Part shown: one piece after another, positions 1-50,068 of the stretch | Numbering within the stretch: position 1 is the first letter of the stretch | Layout: each line of letters begins with the position of its first letter | Assembly: GCF_013122565.1 (NCBI RefSeq) | Contig: NZ_CP053258.1 | DNA length: 64,000 nucleotides | Direction: 5' to 3' (one strand) | Source of the DNA: Escherichia coli | GTDB lineage: Bacteria; Pseudomonadota; Gammaproteobacteria; Enterobacterales; Enterobacteriaceae | The notes under the pieces: generated by a model | The model's database searches: none | Told to the model about the DNA's origin: nothing | What the model saw: the letters and a program-made list of their open reading frames with translations, nothing else | Translations under genes and position numbers: made by a program

Positions 1-264
1 CATGGCTGGATTGAGGTTGTTGAGTCCATGACCTTATCCGTCTGATTCCGCCACTCTGTGCCGGTTTACTGCACCGGCACATTCCCCCTCCGGCAAAATT
101 TGTCCAACCTGTTGTACTCAATAAGAAAAAATCCGTGCGCTGATTCACAAATTTGTGCGTAATTTCTCCAGTCCGTTGGACGAGGAGCGGGATTTGATGC
201 GCTTCACAATTTTACTCCCCCTGAGCAACGAGACTGATTCCAGTATCTAAGACTGGAGTCCAGT

Positions 265-1047
265 ATGTTGGAATCAAGCAAAGTTCCCGCCCTGACACGG
301 GCTATTGATATTCTCAATTTGATTGCCCGCATTGGCCCCTGTAATGCTGCGACGATCATTGACACATTGGGGATCCCTAAAAGCACGACCTATTTGCTGC
401 TTAATGAACTCAGGCGTCAGCGTTTTCTTAGCCTTGATCACCAGGAAAATTTTTGTTTGTGGACCAGGCTGGTGGAGCTTTCCGGTCATGCGTTAAGCAA
501 GATGGATCTCCGGGAACTGGCTCGACCGCGTTTGACGCAACTGATGGATACCACCGGGCTGTTATGTCACCTGGGGATTATTGATAACGGCAGCGCTTAT
601 TACATTTTAAAAGTGGAGTCATCAGCCACTATCAGCGTGCGTTCCCATGAAGGAAAAAGCCTTTCGCTTTATCGCTCCGGAATAGGTAAATGCCTGCTTG
701 CCTGGCAACCTGCAGCGGTACAGCAAAGTATTATCGAAGGGCTGGTCTGGGAGCAGACGACACCCACAACGATTACTCATCCACAGCAACTTCACGAAGA
801 ACTGGCGCGTATTCGCCGTCAGGGCTGGAGCTATGACAACGGCGAAGATTACGCCGATGTCCGTTGTGTCGCTGCGCCGGTGTTTAACGCCAATAACGAG
901 CTTACCGCTGCGATCTCGGTGGTCGGTACCCGCTTACAAATCAATGAAGAATACCGTGATTATCTGGCGGGCAAGGCCATTGCCTGCGCCAGGGATATTT
1001 CACGTCTGTTGGGATGGAAAAGTCCCTTTGACTTACAAGCCTCATAA
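265..1047 (+). CDS. rhmR: IclR-family transcriptional regulator of the L-rhamnonate operon
   Basis: 260-aa ORF with N-terminal IclR-type HTH; GGAG SD 6 nt upstream of ATG; directly precedes rhmD-rhmT-rhmA as K-12 yfaX does. Confidence 0.85.
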
Positions 1048-1061
1048 CAATGGAGAACATC

Positions 1062-2267
1062 ATGACCCTACCAAAAATTAAACAGGTTCGCGCCTGGTTT
1101 ACTGGCGGTGCGACAGCAGAAAAAGGCGCTGGCGGCGGTGATTATCACGACCAGGGGGCGAATCACTGGATAGACGATCATATTGCCACCCCGATGAGTA
1201 AATACCGCGATTACGAGCAGTCACGCCAGTCATTTGGCATTAACGTTCTTGGCACGTTGGTTGTTGAAGTCGAAGCAGAAAACGGCCAGACCGGATTCGC
1301 TGTTTCGACAGCCGGTGAAATGGGCTGTTTTATCGTCGAAAAACACCTTAACCGTTTCATTGAGGGTAAATGTGTCAGTGATATCAAACTGATCCACGAT
1401 CAAATGCTCAATGCCACCCTGTATTACTCCGGCTCTGGTGGCCTGGTGATGAATACGATTTCCTGTGTCGATCTGGCTCTGTGGGATCTGTTCGGCAAAG
1501 TGGTTGGGCTTCCGATTTATAAACTTTTAGGCGGCGCTGTTCGTGATGAGATTCAGTTCTACGCCACAGGTGCGCGTCCGGATCTGGCAAAAGAGATGGG
1601 CTTTATCGGTGGCAAAATGCCGACGCACTGGGGGCCACATGATGGCGATGCGGGGATCCGCAAAGATGCCGCTATGGTCGCGGATATGCGTGAAAAATGC
1701 GGTGAGGATTTCTGGTTAATGCTCGACTGCTGGATGAGTCAGGACGTGAACTATGCCACCAAACTGGCCCACGCTTGCGCGCCCTATAACCTGAAATGGA
1801 TCGAAGAGTGCCTGCCGCCACAGCAGTATGAAGGTTATCGCGAACTGAAACGCAACGCCCCAGCGGGGATGATGGTCACCAGTGGTGAGCACCACGGCAC
1901 ACTGCAATCTTTTCGTACGCTTTCAGAAACCGGTATCGACATCATGCAGCCGGATGTTGGCTGGTGCGGTGGCTTAACCACGCTGGTGGAAATTGCCGCA
2001 ATCGCCAAATCCAGGGGGCAACTGGTGGTGCCGCACGGTTCGTCTGTTTACTCCCACCATGCGGTGATCACCTTCACCAATACGCCATTCAGTGAATTCC
2101 TGATGACCAGCCCGGATTGTTCAACGATGCGTCCGCAATTTGATCCGATTCTGCTTAATGAGCCGGTTCCGGTGAATGGTCGTATTCATAAATCAGTGCT
2201 TGATAAGCCCGGTTTCGGCGTCGAACTCAATCGTGACTGCAATTTGAAACGCCCCTACAGCCACTAA
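1062..2267 (+). CDS. rhmD: L-rhamnonate dehydratase (enolase superfamily)
   Basis: Enolase/mandelate-racemase-like protein; start placed at second ATG (1062), which has a GGAG SD 6 nt upstream, whereas the ORF-track ATG at 1050 has none; giving 401 aa. Confidence 0.85.
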
Positions 2268-2323
2268 TCACTCCGGGCGTTGCTGTGAGAACGGTAATGC
2301 CCACATATTCTAAGGAGCTTTTT

Positions 2324-3613
2324 ATGAGCACCGCTTTGCTTGACGCCGTGGTGAAGAAAAACCGTGCGCGTTTAATTCCGTTTATGTTGGCGCTGTATGT
2401 GCTGGCGTTTCTCGACCGTTCGAATATTGGTTTTGCCAAACAGACCTACCAGATTGATACCGGGCTGAGTAATGAAGCTTATGCGCTGGGAGCAGGCATT
2501 TTCTTTGTGGTATACGCGTTTCTGGGGGTTCCGGCGAATCTTTTGATGCGAAAACTGGGGGCCAGAACCTGGATTGGTACGACAACACTGCTGTGGGGAT
2601 TTCTTTCGGCAGCCATGGCATGGGCCGATACTGAAGCGAAATTTCTGATTGTTCGCACTCTGCTTGGTGCTGCGGAGGCTGGGTTTTTCCCTGGTATGAT
2701 TTATCTCACCTCGCAATGGTTTCCGCAGAGTAATCGCGCCAGCATTATGGGGCTGTTCTATATGGGCGCACCGCTGGCGTTAACACTGGGATCACCGCTT
2801 TCTGGCGCGCTGCTGGAGATGCATGGATTTATGGGGCATCCCGGCTGGTTCTGGATGTTTGTGATTGAAGGATTGTTGGCAGTCGGCGCTGGGGTATTCA
2901 CATTCTTTTGGCTTGATGACACACCGGAGCAGGCACGTTTTCTGAGTAAACAAGAAAAAAAGTTGCTTATCAATCAACTGGCAAGTGAAGAACAACAGAA
3001 AGTGACTTCCCGAATGAGCGATGCGCTGCGTAATGGGCGAGTCTGGCAACTGGCGATTATCTACCTGACCATTCAGGTGGCGGTTTACGGATTAATTTTC
3101 TTCTTGCCGACCCAGGTTGCTGCATTGCTGGGGACAAAAGTGGGCTTTACGGCGTCGGTGGTCACCGCCATTCCGTGGGTTGCTGCCTTATTTGGGACCT
3201 GGCTTATTCCGCGCTATTCCGATAAAACCGGCGAACGGCGTAATGTCGCAGCGCTGACATTACTGGCGGCGGGCATTGGTATTGGTCTGTCCGGGCTGCT
3301 TTCTCCAGTAATGGCGATCGTAGCGCTGTGTGTTGCAGCCATCGGGTTTATTGCCGTGCAGCCGGTGTTCTGGACGATGCCGACACAACTGCTTTCCGGT
3401 ACGGCGCTGGCTGCGGGGATTGGTTTTGTAAACCTGTTTGGTGCAGTGGGCGGGTTTATTGCCCCGATCCTGCGCGTGAAAGCAGAAACGTTATTTGCCA
3501 GCGATGCGGCGGGATTACTGACGCTGGCAGCGGTGGCGGTCATCGGTTCGCTGATTATTTTCACTCTGCGTGTATATCGTACTGTTGCGCAGACCGATGT
3601 GGCACATCATTAA
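2324..3613 (+). CDS. rhmT: MFS transporter, probable L-rhamnonate importer
   Basis: Polytopic MFS-like protein; ORF track starts at GTG 2285, but ATG 2324 has a strong AAGGAG SD 7 nt upstream, giving 429 aa. Confidence 0.85.
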
Positions 3614-3630
3614 ATAGGTTAAGGAACACG

Positions 3631-4434
3631 ATGAACGCATTATTAACCAATCCCTTTAAAGAACGTTTACGCAAGGGCGAAGTGCAAATTGGTCTGTGGT
3701 TAAGCTCAACAACTGCCTATATGGCAGAAATTGCCGCCACTTCCGGTTATGACTGGTTGCTGATTGACGGGGAGCACGCGCCAAACACCATTCAGGATCT
3801 TTATCACCAGCTACAGGCGGTAGCGCCCTATGCCAGCCAACCCGTGATCCGTCCGGTGGAAGGCAGTAAACCGCTGATTAAACAAGTCCTGGATATTGGC
3901 GCGCAAACTCTACTGATCCCGATGGTCGATACTGCCGATCAGGCACGTCAGGTGGTGTCTGCCACGCGCTATCCTCCCTACGGTGAGCGTGGTGTCGGGG
4001 CCAGTGTGGCACGGGCTGCGCGCTGGGGACGCATTGAGAATTACATGGCGCAAGTTAACGATTCACTTTGTCTGTTGGTGCAGGTGGAAAGTAAAACGGC
4101 ACTGGATAACCTGGACGAAATCCTCGACGTCGAAGGGATTGATGGCGTGTTTATTGGACCTGCGGATCTTTCTGCGTCGTTGGGCTACCCGGATAACGCC
4201 GGGCACCCGGAAGTGCAGCGAATTATTGAAACCAGTATTCGGCGGATCCGTGCTGCGGGTAAAGCGGCTGGTTTTCTGGCTGTGGCTCCTGATATGGCGC
4301 AGCAATGCCTGGCGTGGGGAGCGAACTTTGTCGCTGTTGGCGTTGACACGATGCTCTACAGCAATGCCCTGGATCAACGACTGGCGATGTTTAAATCAGG
4401 CAAAAATGGGCCACGCATAAAAGGTAGTTATTGA
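3631..4434 (+). CDS. rhmA: 2-keto-3-deoxy-L-rhamnonate aldolase (HpcH/HpaI family)
   Basis: 267-aa protein from ATG 3631 (SD AAGGAA upstream); the ORF-track entry 3328..4434 is an artefactual N-terminal extension overlapping rhmT. Confidence 0.85.
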
Positions 4435-5800: not shown

Positions 5801-9865
<4,065 letters not shown>

Positions 9866-9945
9866 TGTTATCCCTCTGAAGTTCGTTTTTTACCATTTAG
9901 CCATAGTAAAAACATGAATTGTTTGATTTCGCGCATATTCGCTCA

Positions 9946-9995
9946 TAATTCGAAAATGAAACGTGATTTCATGCGTCATTTTGAACATTTTGTAA
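9946..9995. promoter_or_regulatory. Palindromic operator-like elements in the glpA/glpT control region (candidate GlpR sites)
   Basis: atgaaacgtgatttcat palindrome and ttttgaacat half-site in the divergent intergenic region. Confidence 0.4.
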
Positions 9996-10011
9996 ATCTT
10001 ATTTAATAATG

Positions 10012-10027
10012 TGTGCGGCAATTCACA
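10012..10027. promoter_or_regulatory. CRP-like site tgtgcggcaattcaca
   Basis: TGTG-N8-CACA with the correct 16-bp geometry in the glpA/glpT divergent region. Confidence 0.5.
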
Positions 10028-10137
10028 TTTAATTTCTGAATGTTTTCTTAACATCGCGGCAACTCAAGAAACGGCTGGTTCTCCCACTGAATCAGGCTGT
10101 TAATCATAAATAAGACCACGGGCCACGGAGGCTTTCA

Positions 10138-11496
10138 ATGTTGAGTATTTTTAAACCGGCGCCACACAAAGCGCGCTTACCTGCTGCGGAGATCGATCCG
10201 ACTTATCGTCGATTGCGCTGGCAAATTTTCCTGGGGATATTCTTTGGCTATGCTGCTTACTATTTGGTTCGTAAGAACTTTGCGCTCGCTATGCCTTACC
10301 TGGTGGAGCAGGGATTCTCACGCGGTGATTTAGGTTTTGCGCTTTCTGGGATCTCGATCGCCTATGGATTTTCGAAATTCATCATGGGTTCGGTATCGGA
10401 TCGCTCGAATCCGCGCGTTTTCCTGCCCGCAGGTTTGATTCTGGCGGCGGCAGTGATGTTGTTTATGGGCTTTGTGCCATGGGCGACGTCGAGCATTGCG
10501 GTGATGTTTGTACTGTTGTTCCTCTGCGGCTGGTTCCAGGGAATGGGGTGGCCGCCGTGTGGTCGTACTATGGTGCACTGGTGGTCGCAGAAAGAACGTG
10601 GCGGCATTGTGTCAGTATGGAACTGTGCGCACAACGTCGGTGGTGGTATTCCGCCGCTGCTGTTCCTGCTGGGGATGGCCTGGTTCAATGACTGGCACGC
10701 GGCGCTCTATATGCCCGCTTTCTGCGCCATTCTGGTGGCACTATTCGCCTTTGCGATGATGCGCGATACCCCGCAATCCTGTGGTCTGCCGCCGATCGAA
10801 GAGTACAAAAATGATTATCCGGACGACTATAACGAAAAAGCGGAACAGGAGCTGACTGCGAAGCAAATCTTCATGCAGTACGTGCTGCCGAACAAATTGC
10901 TGTGGTACATCGCCATCGCCAACGTGTTCGTTTATCTGCTGCGTTACGGCATCCTCGACTGGTCACCAACTTATCTGAAAGAGGTTAAGCATTTCGCGCT
11001 GGATAAATCCTCCTGGGCCTACTTCCTTTATGAATATGCAGGAATTCCGGGCACCCTGCTGTGTGGATGGATGTCGGATAAAGTCTTCCGTGGCAACCGT
11101 GGGGCAACCGGCGTCTTCTTTATGACACTGGTGACCATCGCGACTATCGTTTACTGGATGAACCCAGCGGGCAATCCGAACGTCGATATGATTTGTATGA
11201 TTGTTATCGGCTTCCTGATTTACGGCCCTGTGATGCTGATCGGTCTGCATGCGCTGGAACTGGCACCGAAAAAAGCGGCAGGTACGGCAGCGGGCTTTAC
11301 CGGGCTGTTTGGTTACCTGGGCGGTTCGGTGGCGGCGAGCGCGATTGTTGGCTATACCGTGGACTTCTTTGGCTGGGATGGCGGCTTTATGGTAATGATT
11401 GGCGGCAGCATTCTGGCGGTTATCTTGTTGATTGTTGTGATGATTGGCGAAAAACGTCGCCATCAGGAATTACTGCAAAAACGCAACGGAGGCTAA
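10138..11496 (+). CDS. glpT: Glycerol-3-phosphate:phosphate antiporter (MFS)
   Basis: 452-aa MFS protein; GGAGG SD upstream; synteny with glpQ. Confidence 0.93.
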
Positions 11497-37151: not shown

Positions 37152-40001
37152 TTGAAATACCTTGCTTCTTTTCGTACAACCCTGAAAGCCTCGCGCTACA
37201 TGTTCAGAGCATTGGCGTTAGTGCTCTGGCTGTTGATTGCTTTTTCATCCGTTTTTTACATCGTTAATGCGTTACATCAGCGAGAATCGGAAATTCGTCA
37301 GGAATTTAATCTGAGTTCCGATCAGGCTCAGCGCTTTATTCAACGCACCTCTGATGTGATGAAAGAGCTGAAGTACATCGCTGAAAATCGCTTATCGGTA
37401 GAAAACGGTGTGCTTTCCCCGCGTGGACGAGAAACGCAGGCAGATGTGCCTGCGTTTGAACCGCTGTTTGCCGACTCCGATTGTTCCGCAATGAGTAACA
37501 CCTGGCGAGGTTCTCTGGAGTCATTGGCGTGGTTTATGCGCTACTGGCGCGATAATTTTTCTGCGGCTTACGATCTCAACCGGGTATTTTTAATCGGCAG
37601 CGATAACCTCTGCATGGCCAATTTCGGTCTGCGTGATATGCCAGTGGAACGCGATACCGCGTTGAAAGCTTTGCATGAACGCATCAATAAATATCGAAAT
37701 GCACCACAAGATGATAGCGGCAGTAACCTCTACTGGATCAGCGAAGGTCCGCGCCCTGGCGTCGGGTATTTTTACGCGTTGACGCCAGTTTATCTGGCGA
37801 ACCGGTTGCAGGCGCTTTTGGGTGTCGAGCAAACCATCCGGATGGAGAACTTTTTCTTACCGGGTACGTTGCCGATGGGGGTTACCATTCTTGATGAAAA
37901 TGGTCATACCCTGATTTCGCTTACCGGACCAGAAAGCAAAATTAAGGGCGATCCTCGCTGGATGCAGGAACGCTCCTGGTTTGGCTATACGGAAGGGTTC
38001 CGGGAGCTGGTGCTGAAGAAAAATCTGCCACCCTCATCGCTAAGCATCGTGTATTCGGTGCCGGTTGATAAGGTGCTGGAACGCATTCGCATGTTGATCC
38101 TTAACGCAATTTTGCTGAATGTGCTTGCCGGAGCTGCATTGTTTACTCTCGCGCGGATGTACGAGCGACGTATTTTCATTCCGGCGGAAAGCGACGCCCT
38201 GCGACTGGAAGAACATGAGCAGTTCAATCGCAAGATTGTCGCCTCCGCGCCAGTGGGTATCTGCATTTTGCGTACCGCTGATGGCGTCAATATTTTAAGT
38301 AACGAACTGGCGCATACCTATCTCAATATGCTTACGCATGAGGACCGCCAACGACTGACGCAAATTATCTGTGGGCAGCAGGTCAATTTTGTTGATGTCC
38401 TGACCAGCAACAATACCAATCTGCAAATCAGCTTCGTCCATTCGCGCTATCGTAATGAAAACGTGGCCATTTGTGTGCTGGTGGATGTTTCTTCGCGCGT
38501 GAAGATGGAAGAGTCGTTGCAGGAGATGGCACAAGCAGCGGAACAGGCGAGCCAGTCAAAATCGATGTTCCTTGCCACCGTCAGTCATGAGCTGCGAACG
38601 CCGCTGTATGGCATTATCGGTAACCTGGATCTTTTGCAAACCAAAGAGTTACCGAAAGGCGTCGATCGTCTGGTGACGGCAATGAACAACTCTTCCAGCC
38701 TGTTGTTGAAAATTATCAGCGATATTCTCGATTTCTCGAAGATTGAATCGGAACAGTTGAAGATCGAACCGCGTGAGTTTTCACCGCGTGAAGTGATGAA
38801 CCACATCACCGCCAACTATTTACCGCTGGTGGTACGCAAGCAGTTAGGCTTGTACTGCTTTATTGAACCGGATGTGCCAGTGGCCTTAAATGGCGACCCG
38901 ATGCGTTTACAGCAGGTCATCTCCAACCTGTTGAGTAACGCCATAAAATTCACCGATACCGGCTGTATAGTTTTGCATGTCCGCGCTGATGGCGATTATC
39001 TCTCTATCCGTGTTCGCGATACCGGCGTGGGGATCCCGGCGAAAGAAGTGGTGCGCTTGTTTGATCCCTTCTTCCAGGTCGGAACGGGCGTACAGCGAAA
39101 CTTCCAGGGGACCGGTCTGGGTCTGGCGATTTGTGAAAAACTGATCAGCATGATGGACGGCGACATCTCGGTAGATTCAGAACCGGGAATGGGCAGCCAG
39201 TTTACCGTGCGTATTCCGTTGTACGGCGCTCAGTACCCGCAGAAAAAAGGCGTGGAAGGGTTGAGTGGTAAACGCTGCTGGCTGGCGGTCCGCAATGCGT
39301 CACTCTGTCAGTTCCTGGAAACCAGTTTGCAGCGCAGCGGCATCGTCGTAACAACATACGAAGGGCAGGAACCGACTCCCGAAGATGTGTTAATCACTGA
39401 CGAGGTAGTGAGTAAAAAATGGCAGGGCAGAGCGGTAGTGACCTTCTGTCGTCGACATATTGGTATTCCGCTGGAGAAAGCGCCAGGGGAGTGGGTACAC
39501 AGTGTGGCTGCTCCGCATGAGCTACCGGCATTGTTGGCGCGTATTTATTTGATCGAGATGGAGAGCGACGATCCTGCTAACGCTCTGCCGTCGACGGACA
39601 AAGCGGTCAGCGATAATGACGATATGATGTTTCTGGTCGTGGATGATCATCCGATTAACCGACGTCTGCTGGCAGATCAGTTGGGATCGTTGGGCTATCA
39701 ATGTAAAACCGCGAATGATGGCGTCGATGCGCTTAATGTACTTAGCAAGAATCATATTGATATCGTGCTTAGCGACGTCAACATGCCAAATATGGATGGT
39801 TACCGCTTGACGCAACGCATTCGTCAGTTGGGACTGACGTTGCCGGTAATCGGAGTAACTGCTAATGCGTTGGCTGAAGAGAAGCAGCGGTGTCTGGAGT
39901 CCGGTATGGACAGCTGCCTGTCGAAGCCGGTAACGCTGGATGTGATAAAACAGACGCTGACGGTATATGCCGAGAGGGTCAGGAAATCGCGGGAATCGTA
40001 G
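37152..40001 (+). CDS. rcsC: Rcs phosphorelay hybrid sensor histidine kinase
   Basis: 949 aa; HisKA H-box (SHELRTPL), HATPase and C-terminal receiver domain; apparent TTG start. Confidence 0.92.
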   Translation: MKYLASFRTTLKASRYMFRALALVLWLLIAFSSVFYIVNALHQRESEIRQEFNLSSDQAQRFIQRTSDVMKELKYIAENRLSVENGVLSPRGRETQADVPAFEPLFADSDCSAMSNTWRGSLESLAWFMRYWRDNFSAAYDLNRVFLIGSDNLCMANFGLRDMPVERDTALKALHERINKYRNAPQDDSGSNLYWISEGPRPGVGYFYALTPVYLANRLQALLGVEQTIRMENFFLPGTLPMGVTILDENGHTLISLTGPESKIKGDPRWMQERSWFGYTEGFRELVLKKNLPPSSLSIVYSVPVDKVLERIRMLILNAILLNVLAGAALFTLARMYERRIFIPAESDALRLEEHEQFNRKIVASAPVGICILRTADGVNILSNELAHTYLNMLTHEDRQRLTQIICGQQVNFVDVLTSNNTNLQISFVHSRYRNENVAICVLVDVSSRVKMEESLQEMAQAAEQASQSKSMFLATVSHELRTPLYGIIGNLDLLQTKELPKGVDRLVTAMNNSSSLLLKIISDILDFSKIESEQLKIEPREFSPREVMNHITANYLPLVVRKQLGLYCFIEPDVPVALNGDPMRLQQVISNLLSNAIKFTDTGCIVLHVRADGDYLSIRVRDTGVGIPAKEVVRLFDPFFQVGTGVQRNFQGTGLGLAICEKLISMMDGDISVDSEPGMGSQFTVRIPLYGAQYPQKKGVEGLSGKRCWLAVRNASLCQFLETSLQRSGIVVTTYEGQEPTPEDVLITDEVVSKKWQGRAVVTFCRRHIGIPLEKAPGEWVHSVAAPHELPALLARIYLIEMESDDPANALPSTDKAVSDNDDMMFLVVDDHPINRRLLADQLGSLGYQCKTANDGVDALNVLSKNHIDIVLSDVNMPNMDGYRLTQRIRQLGLTLPVIGVTANALAEEKQRCLESGMDSCLSKPVTLDVIKQTLTVYAERVRKSRES

Positions 40002-40878: not shown

Positions 40879-43551
40879 CTACAGCAAGCTCTTGACATAA
40901 CTGTCAATGTCGCTGATGTATTTTTCTATTCCTGGAACATCCTTCTCACGAATCAGATGTTCCAGCGTTTCACATAACTGCTTGCCGGGTACCAGATTTA
41001 GCATGGCAAATACGCCTTTAAGACGATGAGCCGTTTGGGCTAACGCAGCAAAGTCACTGGTTGCTGCTTCAGTATACAGCCTCTTAACATCATCCGGTAC
41101 TGTGTCTACAAAGAGCGCATAATAGCCGCTGGCATGGAGTTGCGCATTTTCATCTCCGCCCAGAGGCGATTCTGTCACCTCTTCCTGCGCCAGTTGCACT
41201 TCAATTAATTGTAAGACCGCTTCCTGCATAGCGTTGCTCATATTGAAGTTGACGCACAATTGACCAGGCCCAATTTCCCGTACGCCAGACTCATCATCGC
41301 TTAAAAGCAAGCCAGAGGCAGTAAGATTAGACGGATTATCCGTTAAAAAGATATCATAATCTTGACTAATTAATCTTTCATCGGGTGTGATACAGGTTGC
41401 ACCCCAATTTTCTAACTGGCGAGTGACAATATTCCGAATTTCTGCCGAAGTAACATCCACCATTACGCAGACATCATCCAGTAAACGCTCTTCTTCCTCT
41501 TCAACTTCCGGGTCAGCTGCGAGCATTTTGATATGCACAGAGTAGCGTGTACCAAGCCCATCCCGCGTTTTGATGTTTAAATGACCGCCCAGTTTACGCG
41601 CCAGTTGATCGCTCAGCCAGAATGCCAGCGGGTCCGCCTTGCCATAGCGATCGTTTTGGGTCTGGTTGATAAACGGGAAGTGCAAATTATCCATTTCATG
41701 AATACTTACGCCTTCTCCCGTGTCCAGAATGCGGAACGTCAGGCGGTCTTCGGAGGACTCATCCTGATCAACCTCAAGGGTGATTTTTCCCAATTGCGTT
41801 GAGGTCACGGCATATTGCATCAGTAGCAGCAAAATACGTCGTAAGGCATCGCGATCGCCGCGGCGCATATCGTGTGCTTTCAGATGATTGTTAATCAGCA
41901 GTTGCAGACCTTTACGCTTGATGGCAGGCAACACTGAAGGCACAACTTCATCAATTAAATCCTGCACGGAGAACAGCACCGTCTCACTTTTCCAGCTATC
42001 GTCCGCAAGCATGTTCGCTAACTGTATTTCATCGACCAGCCGCACCAGCACATCTGCCTGATTCGCCAGTTGTTTGCTTTCCGGGGCGTTGAGTTTAGCC
42101 GCGCTCTCCGCCAGGGACTGTGCGGGTTCTTTCAGCGCATCGCCAATGTTTTTCATAAAGGTCATCCGCCCCTGCTGGTTTTTCTCATACAGACGCTGCG
42201 CCTGCTTGAGTTTCTTGTTTACCAGCACTTCGCGATCCTGATCGCGAATAATGAAAATTTGTGTGCGCGGCGCAACCTGGCTGCGGAACATGCGGATCTC
42301 ATACAGCTCGTTATTGATCGTCGCCTGAATAATCCCCTGATGCTGTTCCGCCATGGTGGTGATGTTTTGCAGATTCAAATGCGGCAGCAAATGATCGGCA
42401 ATTTTGTTACTTATGACAGTGCGGTTCGATTCCTGATCGTGAACCAGCAGGCCGAGCGGCAGCAGTGAGACTATCTCTTCATTAATTGCCCGTAAAATGC
42501 GCAATTCGTTATTGACCGCCGTGTTGGGTAGACTTTCTGTACTGCGACTGGAGAAATGGCGGAATGTGGTATAGCCAAATAACGCCAGCGCCAGCAAACC
42601 GATGTTCAGCAGCAGTGGCAGCAGAATGTTTTGCAACGTATCCAGCAATAAGGTGCCATAAGGAACCTGCCAGACCAGGCGCATATCGGTAGAGTTGAGT
42701 GCCGAGGAGATTTCAATCTTCGTACTGTTAAAGTGGATACTGACGCTATCCGTCCCTTCTTTCTCATTATCATTGTTTCCCGTTGCCGTCGCGTCTGGCT
42801 CAAGGCGGAAACTGTCCAGCGGCATACCCGGTGGGATCAAATCATTAATCGGCAGATCAAAAGCCACGACCGTTGCCAGATGTCCCGGCTGGTTGAACGT
42901 GGTACGCAAGGTAAAGTAATGACCGTTCTGCCAGGCCAGGCGGCGCATGTTAGAAAAACTTTCGCGTTCATCGAGGGCGTTGGCCTGTTGCAACATCTCT
43001 GCACGACGTGAATCAACAATGTCACTGACGGTCGATTCTTTAAATCCGGAGGTGAGATCTTTGAGGGGCAGGGTTGAGATCAGCACCAGACTGTTATCCT
43101 GACCATTCAGGTAATACATCGACCACGGTACATTTTCTGCGCCCCACAATGTATCCAGATAAGTGGACATCCGCTGAGTCATCTCAAGCGTTGAGTTGTC
43201 GTGAGAGCCAAAGATTAACGCTTCCGTTTTGCGACGCGGTTTTTCCAGATAGTAGACATCCTGTTTCAGGCGCGTCTCTTGTAAACCTTCGCCGGAGGAG
43301 GGGGAGGTCGTCGCGGCAATGTTGTCGTAGATCTGCCAGGTCACGTAACGCCAGGTATCGACGCGCTTTTGGATTGCGTGGGTAATGTCGACAATCTGGT
43401 AACTTTTATCTTTCAGCCAGGCGTTAACGGCGCTTTGTACCATTACACCCATCGTCACCAGTAACACAATGATCAACAGTAAAAAGAAGCGGGTAATGCT
43501 CCCCGGTAGGAGTGAAAAGCGGGTCGTGGCCGTTGTCTCTTTCTGACGCAT
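40879..43551 (-). CDS. rcsD: Rcs phosphotransfer protein (HPt)
   Basis: 890 aa; two N-terminal TM segments, degenerate kinase-like core, C-terminal HPt. Confidence 0.92.
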   Translation of the reverse strand: MRQKETTATTRFSLLPGSITRFFLLLIIVLLVTMGVMVQSAVNAWLKDKSYQIVDITHAIQKRVDTWRYVTWQIYDNIAATTSPSSGEGLQETRLKQDVYYLEKPRRKTEALIFGSHDNSTLEMTQRMSTYLDTLWGAENVPWSMYYLNGQDNSLVLISTLPLKDLTSGFKESTVSDIVDSRRAEMLQQANALDERESFSNMRRLAWQNGHYFTLRTTFNQPGHLATVVAFDLPINDLIPPGMPLDSFRLEPDATATGNNDNEKEGTDSVSIHFNSTKIEISSALNSTDMRLVWQVPYGTLLLDTLQNILLPLLLNIGLLALALFGYTTFRHFSSRSTESLPNTAVNNELRILRAINEEIVSLLPLGLLVHDQESNRTVISNKIADHLLPHLNLQNITTMAEQHQGIIQATINNELYEIRMFRSQVAPRTQIFIIRDQDREVLVNKKLKQAQRLYEKNQQGRMTFMKNIGDALKEPAQSLAESAAKLNAPESKQLANQADVLVRLVDEIQLANMLADDSWKSETVLFSVQDLIDEVVPSVLPAIKRKGLQLLINNHLKAHDMRRGDRDALRRILLLLMQYAVTSTQLGKITLEVDQDESSEDRLTFRILDTGEGVSIHEMDNLHFPFINQTQNDRYGKADPLAFWLSDQLARKLGGHLNIKTRDGLGTRYSVHIKMLAADPEVEEEEERLLDDVCVMVDVTSAEIRNIVTRQLENWGATCITPDERLISQDYDIFLTDNPSNLTASGLLLSDDESGVREIGPGQLCVNFNMSNAMQEAVLQLIEVQLAQEEVTESPLGGDENAQLHASGYYALFVDTVPDDVKRLYTEAATSDFAALAQTAHRLKGVFAMLNLVPGKQLCETLEHLIREKDVPGIEKYISDIDSYVKSLL

Positions 43552-48424: not shown

Positions 48425-50068
48425 ATGGAACTTCTTGTACTTGTCTGGCGGCAGTATCGCTGGCCATTTATCAGTGTGATGGCGCTAAGCCTCGCCAGTG
48501 CGGCTTTAGGCATTGGCTTAATTGCTTTTATCAATCAGCGCCTTATCGAAACGGCGGATACCAGTCTGCTGGTGTTGCCGGAGTTTCTGGGATTATTGCT
48601 GCTGTTGATGGCCGTCACTCTCGGATCGCAACTGGCGCTCACCACTTTGGGGCATCACTTCGTTTACCGACTGCGTAGTGAATTTATCAAGCGGATTCTG
48701 GATACCCACGTCGAACGCATTGAACAACTCGGTAGCGCCTCGTTGTTGGCGGGGTTAACCAGCGATGTGCGCAATATCACCATTGCTTTTGTGCGTCTGC
48801 CGGAACTGGTGCAGGGGATCATTCTCACTATCGGTTCCGCGGCGTATCTGTGGATGCTGTCGGGCAAAATGTTGCTGGTAACGGCTATCTGGATGGCGAT
48901 CACCATCTGGGGTGGTTTTGTACTGGTGGCGCGGGTGTACAAACATATGGCGACCCTGCGTGAAACCGAAGACAAGCTGTACACGGATTTTCAAACCGTA
49001 CTCGAAGGGCGCAAAGAGCTGACTCTGAACCGGGAACGCGCCGAGTATGTGTTTAACAACCTCTACATTCCTGATGCGCAAGAGTATCGCCATCATATTA
49101 TCCGCGCAGACACCTTCCATCTTAGTGCCGTGAACTGGTCAAACATCATGATGCTGGGCGCTATCGGCCTGGTGTTCTGGATGGCGAACAGTCTCGGTTG
49201 GGCTGATACCAACGTTGCTGCGACCTATTCGTTGACGCTGTTATTCCTGCGTACGCCGCTGCTTTCGGCGGTTGGCGCATTGCCGACGCTGCTGACGGCG
49301 CAGGTGGCGTTTAACAAGCTGAACAAATTCGCGCTCGCGCCTTTCAAAGCGGAATTTCCGCGTCCGCAGGCGTTTCCCAACTGGCAAACACTGGAATTGC
49401 GTAACGTGACGTTTAGCTATCAGGATAACGCGTTTTCCGTTGGGCCGATTAACCTCACCATCAAACGTGGCGAACTGCTGTTTCTGATTGGCGGCAACGG
49501 TAGCGGAAAATCGACGCTGGCGATGTTGTTGACGGGCTTGTATCAGCCGCAAAGCGGCGAAATCTTGCTGGATGGCAAACCTGTCAGCGGCGAACAACCG
49601 GAAGATTATCGCAAATTGTTTTCGGCAGTGTTTACCGATGTCTGGCTGTTTGATCAACTGCTGGGGCCGGAGGGGCAACCCGCTAACCCGCAACTGGTTG
49701 AGAAGTGGCTGGCGCAGCTGAAAATGGCTCATAAGCTTGAGTTAAGTAACGGGCGTATTGTTAACCTGAAGTTATCGAAAGGGCAGAAAAAACGCGTGGC
49801 GCTGTTGCTGGCGCTGGCAGAAGAACGCGATATTATCCTGCTGGATGAATGGGCGGCGGATCAGGACCCACACTTCCGTCGTGAGTTTTATCAGGTGTTG
49901 CTGCCGCTGATGCAGGAGATGGGTAAAACTATTTTCGCCATCAGTCATGATGATCATTACTTTATCCACGCCGACCGCCTGCTGGAAATGCGCAACGGGC
50001 AACTTAGCGAGCTGACGGGCGAAGAGCGCGATGCCGCTTCGCGTGATGCCGTTGCCCGGACGGCATAA
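48425..50068 (+). CDS. yojI: ABC exporter, fused TMD-NBD (microcin J25 efflux type)
   Basis: 547 aa; N-terminal TM domain; Walker [10 protein letters not shown]. Confidence 0.9.

Follow-up and report, generated by a model that had tools for sequence, protein, structure and literature searches.

The interval between yfaY and rhmR in Escherichia coli appears to hold two separate units. The first is a GC-rich hairpin at the 3′ end of yfaY, situated at a Rho-dependent boundary, and the second is an rhmR regulatory module that carries two CRP-type sites together with three palindromic boxes, which are candidate operators of the operon's own regulator. This explanation, taken as a whole, is held with moderate confidence, and its parts differ in strength. 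One of the CRP sites, at 193-208, is already known as a published in vitro binding site, and the hairpin is unrelated to the CRP-like 16-mer at 134-149 with which it had been grouped. All positions refer to the window, that is, the whole stretch of 64,000 nucleotides that was analysed (contig NZ_CP053258.1). The binding sites and boxes are given without strand, while the genes and the RNA-level features are on the plus strand.

Layout of the yfaY-rhmR locus

The window opens with the 3′ end of yfaY (1-45, plus strand), represented by its last 14 codons, ending in HGWIEVVESMTLSV, with the TGA stop at 43-45, as recognized from the translation and from the RefSeq annotation of matching E. coli genomes. 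After an intergenic region of 219 bp follows rhmR (yfaX; 265-1047, plus strand), which was assigned from the open reading frame list and annotation. It encodes an IclR-family regulator, starts with an ATG at 265 and is the first gene of rhmR-rhmD-rhmT-rhmA, with rhmD beginning at 1062. E. coli K-12 is collinear here, such that window position x corresponds to NC_000913.3 coordinate 2362476 - x on the minus strand. To our knowledge, this rhamnonate operon, rhmRDTA, is a poorly characterized sugar-acid locus of E. coli, and its promoter and operators have never been mapped.

At this locus, a deletion found in many complete E. coli genomes joins GTCCAACC, inside the element termed Box A below, to the middle of rhmA (window 110-3972). 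The junction, GTCCAACC/CTCCCTACGG, shows 2-3 bp of microhomology, and the deletion takes out the 5′ half of rhmA together with rhmT, rhmD, rhmR and the entire rhmR promoter. Of 5,407 genomes, 1,574 do not cover window 1-1100 over its full length, and the pattern expected of the deletion, a match to 1-109, was seen in three of the five partial matches sampled (H11-H15). At 9800-10300 and 48600-48950, even the closest complete E. coli genome is only 98.6-98.8% identical to the window, compared with 99.5% at 1-1100; therefore, the source strain is either not closely represented in the collection or mosaic.

Conservation was read from an alignment of window 90-276 in 21 genomes, consisting of the window and 20 orthologous rhmR loci. 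These loci come from E. albertii, Citrobacter, Klebsiella, Kluyvera, Trabulsiella and Atlantibacter, and from six further genera, namely Kosakonia, Phytobacter, Mixta, Prodigiosinella, Cedecea and Pantoea. For every 16-column frame of the alignment (n=172), a contrast score was calculated as the information content of the half-sites minus that of the spacer.

The proximal CRP site

The stronger of the two CRP sites, which the initial annotation overlooked, is TTTGA-TGCGCT-TCACA (TTTGATGCGCTTCACA) at 193-208, hereafter site 2, with 9 of 10 core bases matching TGTGA-N6-TCACA (one mismatch). In Table 1 of a recent Footprint-seq study, a novel CRP site is listed for the gene rhmR as atTGTGAagcgcaTCAAAtcc, centred at NC_000913.3 2362274, with an inferred in vitro Kd of 8.0 nM with cAMP-CRP (Wang, Stringer, Wade, bioRxiv 2026, PMC12871828). 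The reverse complement of atTGTGAagcgcaTCAAAtcc is window 190-210, and thus the listed site is identical to 193-208 and different from 134-149, which lies 59 bp upstream.

A symmetric CRP matrix was built from the other 39 sites of the same Table 1, with the rhmR site left out; in leave-one-out scoring, these bound sites range from 5.9 to 22 bits, with a median of 16. On this matrix, site 2 scores 12.65 bits and ranks third among the 63,981 positions of the window. As a positive control, the matrix returns a match at 10012-10027, in the glpT/glpA control region. The two highest scores in the window fall at 48766-48781 (13.45 bits, inside yojI) and 42231-42246 (13.1 bits), and these may be intragenic CRP sites or chance matches. 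Within the intergenic region, site 2 and the 16-mer at 134-149 (site 1) are the only positions above 3 bits, and in 20 of the 21 genomes the matrix scores highest at their two aligned counterparts, the exception being E. albertii, where site 1 comes third.

Across the alignment, G196, A197 and the TCACA at 204-208 are invariant while the spacer of site 2 varies, and its contrast between half-sites and spacer ranks first of the 172 frames. This conservation of the Footprint-seq site across genera supports a regulatory role. Neither rhmR nor yfaX has an entry in the CRP ChIP-exo supplement, and published datasets yielded neither an in vivo ChIP signal for CRP at rhmR nor evidence that rhmR expression depends on CRP. 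The possibility of catabolite control of the rhamnonate locus, raised initially on account of 134-149, is supported: cAMP-CRP does bind the region in vitro, with the Kd given above, and the published site is the one at 193-208, not 134-149. Taken together, CRP control of rhmRDTA is plausible; it would act mainly via 193-208, and 134-149 is probably a distal partner.

The distal CRP-type site

The CRP-like 16-mer that the initial annotation placed about 115 bp before the rhmR ATG, cgtgcgctgattcaca, occupies 134-149, and its last base lies 116 nt before the ATG. It is regarded here, from the matrix and from conservation, as a candidate distal site, and it reads CGTGC-GCTGAT-TCACA, or TGTGA-atcagc-GCACG on the other strand. 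The imperfection of one half-site, noted at the same time, is also present, as 8 of 10 core bases match around a 6-bp spacer and both mismatches fall at outer positions of one half (GCACG). Matches to TGTGA-N6-TCACA with two mismatches number 23 in the window versus 25.8 expected, and therefore the 16-mer is not above chance when judged from the window sequence. The support for 134-149 as a CRP site comes entirely from its conservation across genera.

The matrix scan, which had been suggested as a check of the 16-mer, gives an intermediate answer. Site 1 scores 6.77 bits and ranks 33rd of 63,981 positions, a level at which about 0.11 matches are expected per 219-bp intergenic region, and which is close to the lowest leave-one-out scores of bound sites. 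Its ten half-site bases (TGTGA...GCACG) score 12.3 bits, equal to those of the atpI and dusC/yohJ sites, for which the Footprint-seq study gives Kd values of 2.2 nM and 3.8 nM, respectively (PMC12871828). The score is lost at the A straight after TGTGA, which site 2 has as well, and at the flank base C133, which is invariant, adjoins the half-site and contributes -4.0 bits, although such penalties are rough for a matrix with only 39 training sites.

In the 21 genomes, site 1 combines a varying spacer with three invariant positions (G137, C146 and C148) and three that are at least 90% conserved (G135, T145 and A149). The half-sites hold 1.50 bits of information content versus 0.23 bits for the spacer, a contrast that ranks fourth of the 172 frames. 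Since its position is conserved with fixed half-sites and a variable spacer, site 1 is plausibly a second, distal CRP site. On these sequence features it is probably a real CRP site, weaker and less strictly maintained than site 2, for which it would be a plausible distal partner.

It is possible, albeit doubtful, that 134-149 is conserved without being a working CRP site, so that CRP acts through 193-208 only and the likeness is incidental. The segment would then be contacted by another protein, such as RhmR sitting on the adjacent boxes, or would act as a bendable or UP-like element together with the A-tract at 125-132. The low score in E. coli is consistent with this possibility, as is the spread of site 1 scores across the genomes, from -0.1 to 10.8 bits, with values of about 0-1.6 bits in E. 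albertii, Phytobacter and Pantoea. The same can be said of the chance frequency of two-mismatch matches and of the absence of 134-149 from Table 1 of PMC12871828, which takes in sites with Kd <10 nM only. In addition, the CRP matrix leaves the conserved A-tract and the invariant C133 unexplained, and this matrix-disfavoured base hints at a constraint other than CRP. However, conservation falls on the CRP-contact positions G135, G137, C146 and C148 while the 6-bp spacer drifts, and in Prodigiosinella the site is a perfect TGTGA-N6-TCACA. Moreover, TGTGA...GCACG half-sites occur in sites of nM affinity, and flanks rich in A/T reportedly promote the binding of CRP (PMC12871828).

That 134-149 serves a separate promoter, as its class I or class II site, was rejected, there being no acceptable -10 at the required distance. 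A 12-bp perfect palindrome, CACAAATTTGTG (146-157), overlaps the right half of site 1 and was rejected as an operator. Its counterparts are CACAAATTTGTA in another E. coli and CACAAATTTATG in E. albertii, and it is absent elsewhere; with conservation failing even inside Escherichia, the palindrome is probably incidental.

Candidate operators of RhmR

Three conserved palindromic elements of the module are candidate operators of RhmR. Box A, GTCCAACCTGTTGTACT (102-118), is the most conserved element in the interval to which the initial annotation referred, with 11 invariant columns in the 21 genomes, and it bounds the rhmR regulatory module on the left. In Prodigiosinella and Cedecea it is perfectly palindromic, as AGTACAACCTGTTGTACT, and in Pantoea it is also symmetric, as AGTACAACCGGTTGTACT. 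Every rhmR locus has exactly one copy, always about 163 bp before the ATG. Box B, TCCAGTCCGTTGGA (167-180), is a palindromic TCCA-N6-TGGA between the CRP sites; it takes the form TCCAnnCTGCTGGAA in most genera and is lost in the three most distant ones.

The third candidate, the Box C block (236-276), consists of TCCAGT/ACTGGA half-site repeats and would lie over the transcript start. Its repeats are GATTCCAGTAT at 236-246, ACTGGAGTCCAGT at 252-264 and TCCAGTATGTTGGA at 259-272, which cover both the Shine-Dalgarno sequence GGAG (254-257) and the ATG at 265. The block 231-276 is nearly invariant from Escherichia to Pantoea, the first rhmR codons included; this conservation exceeds coding need and may reflect an operator or a structure in the 5′-UTR. 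Nested repeats are also seen within 231-276, comprising GATTCCAGTAT/GAGTCCAGTAT at a distance of 20 bp, TGATTCCA/TGGAATCA, and the palindrome ACTGGAGTCCAGT, which covers the Shine-Dalgarno sequence.

The pattern TCCARY-NN-GTTGKA has three copies, at 103-116, 167-180 and 259-272, and elsewhere in the window a single match with one mismatch, at 38694-38707, a count that is partly circular because the pattern was derived from those copies. As with the operators of IclR-type regulators, candidate Boxes A, B and C are conserved palindromes that lie upstream of or overlap the promoter and are kept together with the regulator gene. The literature yielded no ChIP, SELEX or EMSA results for RhmR; the ChIP-exo study of uncharacterized transcription factors contains no RhmR binding data, and the XynR paper gives no motif for it. 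The 'RhmR' of a rhamnose-regulon paper was set aside, as it is an unrelated LacI-type protein of Chloroflexus.

Promoter geometry and proposed regulation

A scan of 1-400 for sigma-70 consensus promoters found none, and on reading the sequence of the intergenic region no GG-N10-GC match of a sigma-54 promoter was seen. The best -10 candidate is the putative weak hexamer GAGACT (nAnACT) at 230-235 on the plus strand, in which A231, A233, C234 and T235 are invariant and which would place +1 near 242. Two other hexamers were rejected as -10 elements, CAGTAT (241-246), which is not conserved in distant genera and would leave almost no leader before the Shine-Dalgarno sequence, and CACAAT (205-210), which falls within the CRP footprint and lacks a -35 partner.

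The spacing of the module is rigid, with 32 bp between Box A and site 1, 59-60 bp between sites 1 and 2, and 72 bp between site 2 and the ATG. With about 5.6 helical turns in 59-60 bp, the CRP dimers would not share a face of the DNA. The rhmR regulatory module would extend from Box A (102) to the ATG (265) with the two CRP-type sites inside it. With +1 at about 242, the proximal CRP would be at -41.5, in class II geometry, and the distal CRP at about -100.5. Of the boxes, Box B would sit between the two CRPs at about -68, with Box A farther upstream at about -132 and Box C spanning +1 to +30. The three boxes are probably bound by RhmR, the operon's own IclR-type regulator. Expression of the operon would need cAMP-CRP, present when no preferred sugar is available, plus relief or activation by RhmR when the substrate is present.

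The centres of Box A (109.5) and Box B (173.5) are each 32 bp away from that of site 1 (141.5), and this arrangement holds within 1 bp from Escherichia to Pantoea. It is conceivable, though rather improbable, that the distal site is an architectural element and not just another activator site, in which a bend introduced by CRP draws Box A close to Box B for a single RhmR tetramer. If so, a CRP-dependent loop or wrapped complex would couple the catabolite status of the cell to the operon-specific switch.

The outcome is a testable map of rhmRDTA, which places a published high-affinity CRP site at a predicted class II distance and adds a probable second site, three candidate RhmR operators, their rigid spacing, and a Rho-dependent boundary that would isolate the operon from yfaY. 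This is a gain at the level of annotation, and the understanding of CRP or of termination is unchanged by it.

The hairpin and the probable Rho-dependent boundary at the yfaY 3′ end

The perfect 8-bp inverted repeat reported initially, gtgccggt/accggcac, is present at 58-65/73-80, where it forms part of a perfect 9-bp stem (57-65/73-81) that closes a 7-nt loop. The resulting GC-rich stem-loop (57-81, plus strand) has a folding energy of -17.6 kcal/mol (z = -2.75), which was equalled by 1 of 200 shuffles. The window has about 13 perfect 9-bp hairpins, versus about 2.3 registers in shuffled sequences. From the fold stability and these counts, the hairpin is a real feature, yet one of a common class.

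Its position and composition are those of the stem-loop of an intrinsic terminator, since it begins 11 nt past the yfaY TGA and six of its nine pairs are G/C. The U-rich tract of such a terminator is missing in E. coli, where the 8 nt after the stem (82-89, ttccccct) contain 3 T. Because of this tail, no intrinsic terminator is called in Escherichia, and a consensus terminator scan of 1-400 called none at the hairpin. An Rfam search of 1-400 at a permissive threshold gave no match.

Among the genomes with yfaY upstream of rhmR, the window counted, all 16 have a GC-rich hairpin 10-15 nt past the yfaY stop. The stems are unrelated between clades, being GTGCCGGT in Escherichia, CGCCCGAA in Citrobacter, GCGTCGGGA in Klebsiella and GCCGGAAG in Kosakonia and Phytobacter. 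In most of the related genera, a T-run comes right after the corresponding hairpin; it is seen in Citrobacter, Kluyvera, Kosakonia, Phytobacter and Atlantibacter. Genomes without yfaY upstream keep the segment from Box A through the ATG (from 102), and the homologous hairpin is absent from them. These are Mixta and Prodigiosinella, with no plus-strand open reading frame ending nearby, and Cedecea and Pantoea, with another gene upstream; in Trabulsiella odontotermitis (L011), an assembly gap takes the place of the upstream region. In Citrobacter sedlakii (L005), the spacer between the yfaY stop and Box A is 134 nt versus 34-56 nt, and it folds into several hairpins (-50 kcal/mol), which suggests an inserted repetitive (REP-like) element.

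The hairpin is followed by a C-rich, G-poor tract at 82-110 on the plus strand (12 C, 3 G; C/G = 4.0), which holds a published Rho termination peak. Supplementary file 2 of Adams et al. 2021 (eLife, PMC7815308) places a Rho termination region at K-12 2362376 on the minus strand, which is window 100, 19 nt downstream of the hairpin; this position is only approximate because the score uses 800-nt windows. Reads upstream/downstream are 73/25 without bicyclomycin (BCM) and 80/128 with it, with a Rho score of 4.67 and p = 5e-9 (PMC7815308), and BCM raises the downstream reads 4.7-fold. Within the resolution set by the 800-nt windows, these published data with and without BCM indicate that termination here depends on Rho, unlike that at an intrinsic terminator. 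The supplement of PMC7815308 lists no Term-seq 3′ ends at the hairpin.

The hairpin is no control element of rhmR: it lies 11 nt past the yfaY stop, tracks yfaY across genera and is just upstream of the Rho region. It belongs to the yfaY 3′ end. In the proposed course of events, the hairpin would form in the 3′ untranslated RNA of yfaY, where in related genera the T-run gives it the look of an intrinsic terminator. In Escherichia, the T-run is missing, the C-rich, G-poor tract comes next, and transcription of yfaY would end through Rho. The residual terminator stem most likely serves as a structure protecting the 3′ end or as a pause site, and the net outcome would be that rhmR is insulated from yfaY transcription.

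That the hairpin is instead an attenuator of rhmR, acting on transcripts from yfaY or from its internal sigma-54 site, is unlikely. Such a site does exist, since ChIP-seq places sigma-54 at ATGGCACTGAATATGCT (IS27) inside yfaY, oriented toward rhmR (PMC4591121 Table 2), and the sigma-54 holoenzyme has a SELEX peak in the yfaY region (PMC8743547). The site is 38-54 bp before window position 1 (L001 1447-1463) and hence outside the window. The rise of downstream reads with BCM is also in line with attenuation, and some readthrough is to be expected because the hairpin has no U-tract. However, sigma-54 occupancy is low (fold-above-threshold score 2), and neither an activator nor a transcript is known. 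The hairpin follows yfaY rather than rhmR, the whole rhmR module is kept elsewhere without it, and most orthologous hairpins, having T-runs, resemble plain terminators. A sigma-54 transcript starting within yfaY would need to cross both the hairpin and the Rho zone before reaching rhmR.

It is highly improbable that the hairpin and the 16-mer are both functionless chance patterns, for although two-mismatch 16-mers occur at the rate of shuffled sequence and 1-400 has neither a consensus terminator or promoter nor an Rfam match, the hairpin persists in place despite the turnover of its stem sequence, its stability stands out from shuffles at the z given above, and the half-site bases of the 16-mer are invariant or nearly so across genera as far as Pantoea.

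Comparison with known systems

Among gene-end stem-loops, both Rho-dependent and intrinsic, the yfaY hairpin resembles those with a GC-rich stem-loop soon after the stop codon, and its orthologues have T-runs. In E. coli, the C-rich tract and the BCM-sensitive termination zone after the hairpin are as at Rho-dependent gene ends. It differs from intrinsic terminators in that the E. coli hairpin is without the defining U-tract, and no RNA 3′ end was found mapped to its foot.

Several catabolic operons are co-regulated by an IclR-family protein and CRP, including mhp (MhpR), yiaK-S (YiaJ) and the pectinase genes under KdgR and CRP. The rhamnonate locus shares with them a sugar-acid or aromatic operon with its own IclR-type regulator gene, AT-centred palindromes and CRP upstream. 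The difference is that Boxes A, B and C of rhmR are known only as conserved palindromes of the form TCCARY-NN-GTTGKA.

The arrangement at deoP2 is a class III layout, in which two CRP sites flank a repressor site (PMC5957442). At deoP2, CRP is near -40 and -93 with CytR between, a spacing of about 50-53 bp, whereas the rhmR sites are 59-60 bp apart and the local regulator would be the IclR-type RhmR instead of CytR. Moreover, binding at rhmR is known in vitro for one site of two, and its transcription start is a prediction. Apart from these differences, rhmR resembles deoP2 in having two CRP-type sites, with the proximal one at a predicted -41.5, a palindrome for a candidate local regulator (Box B) between them, and no good sigma-70 consensus.
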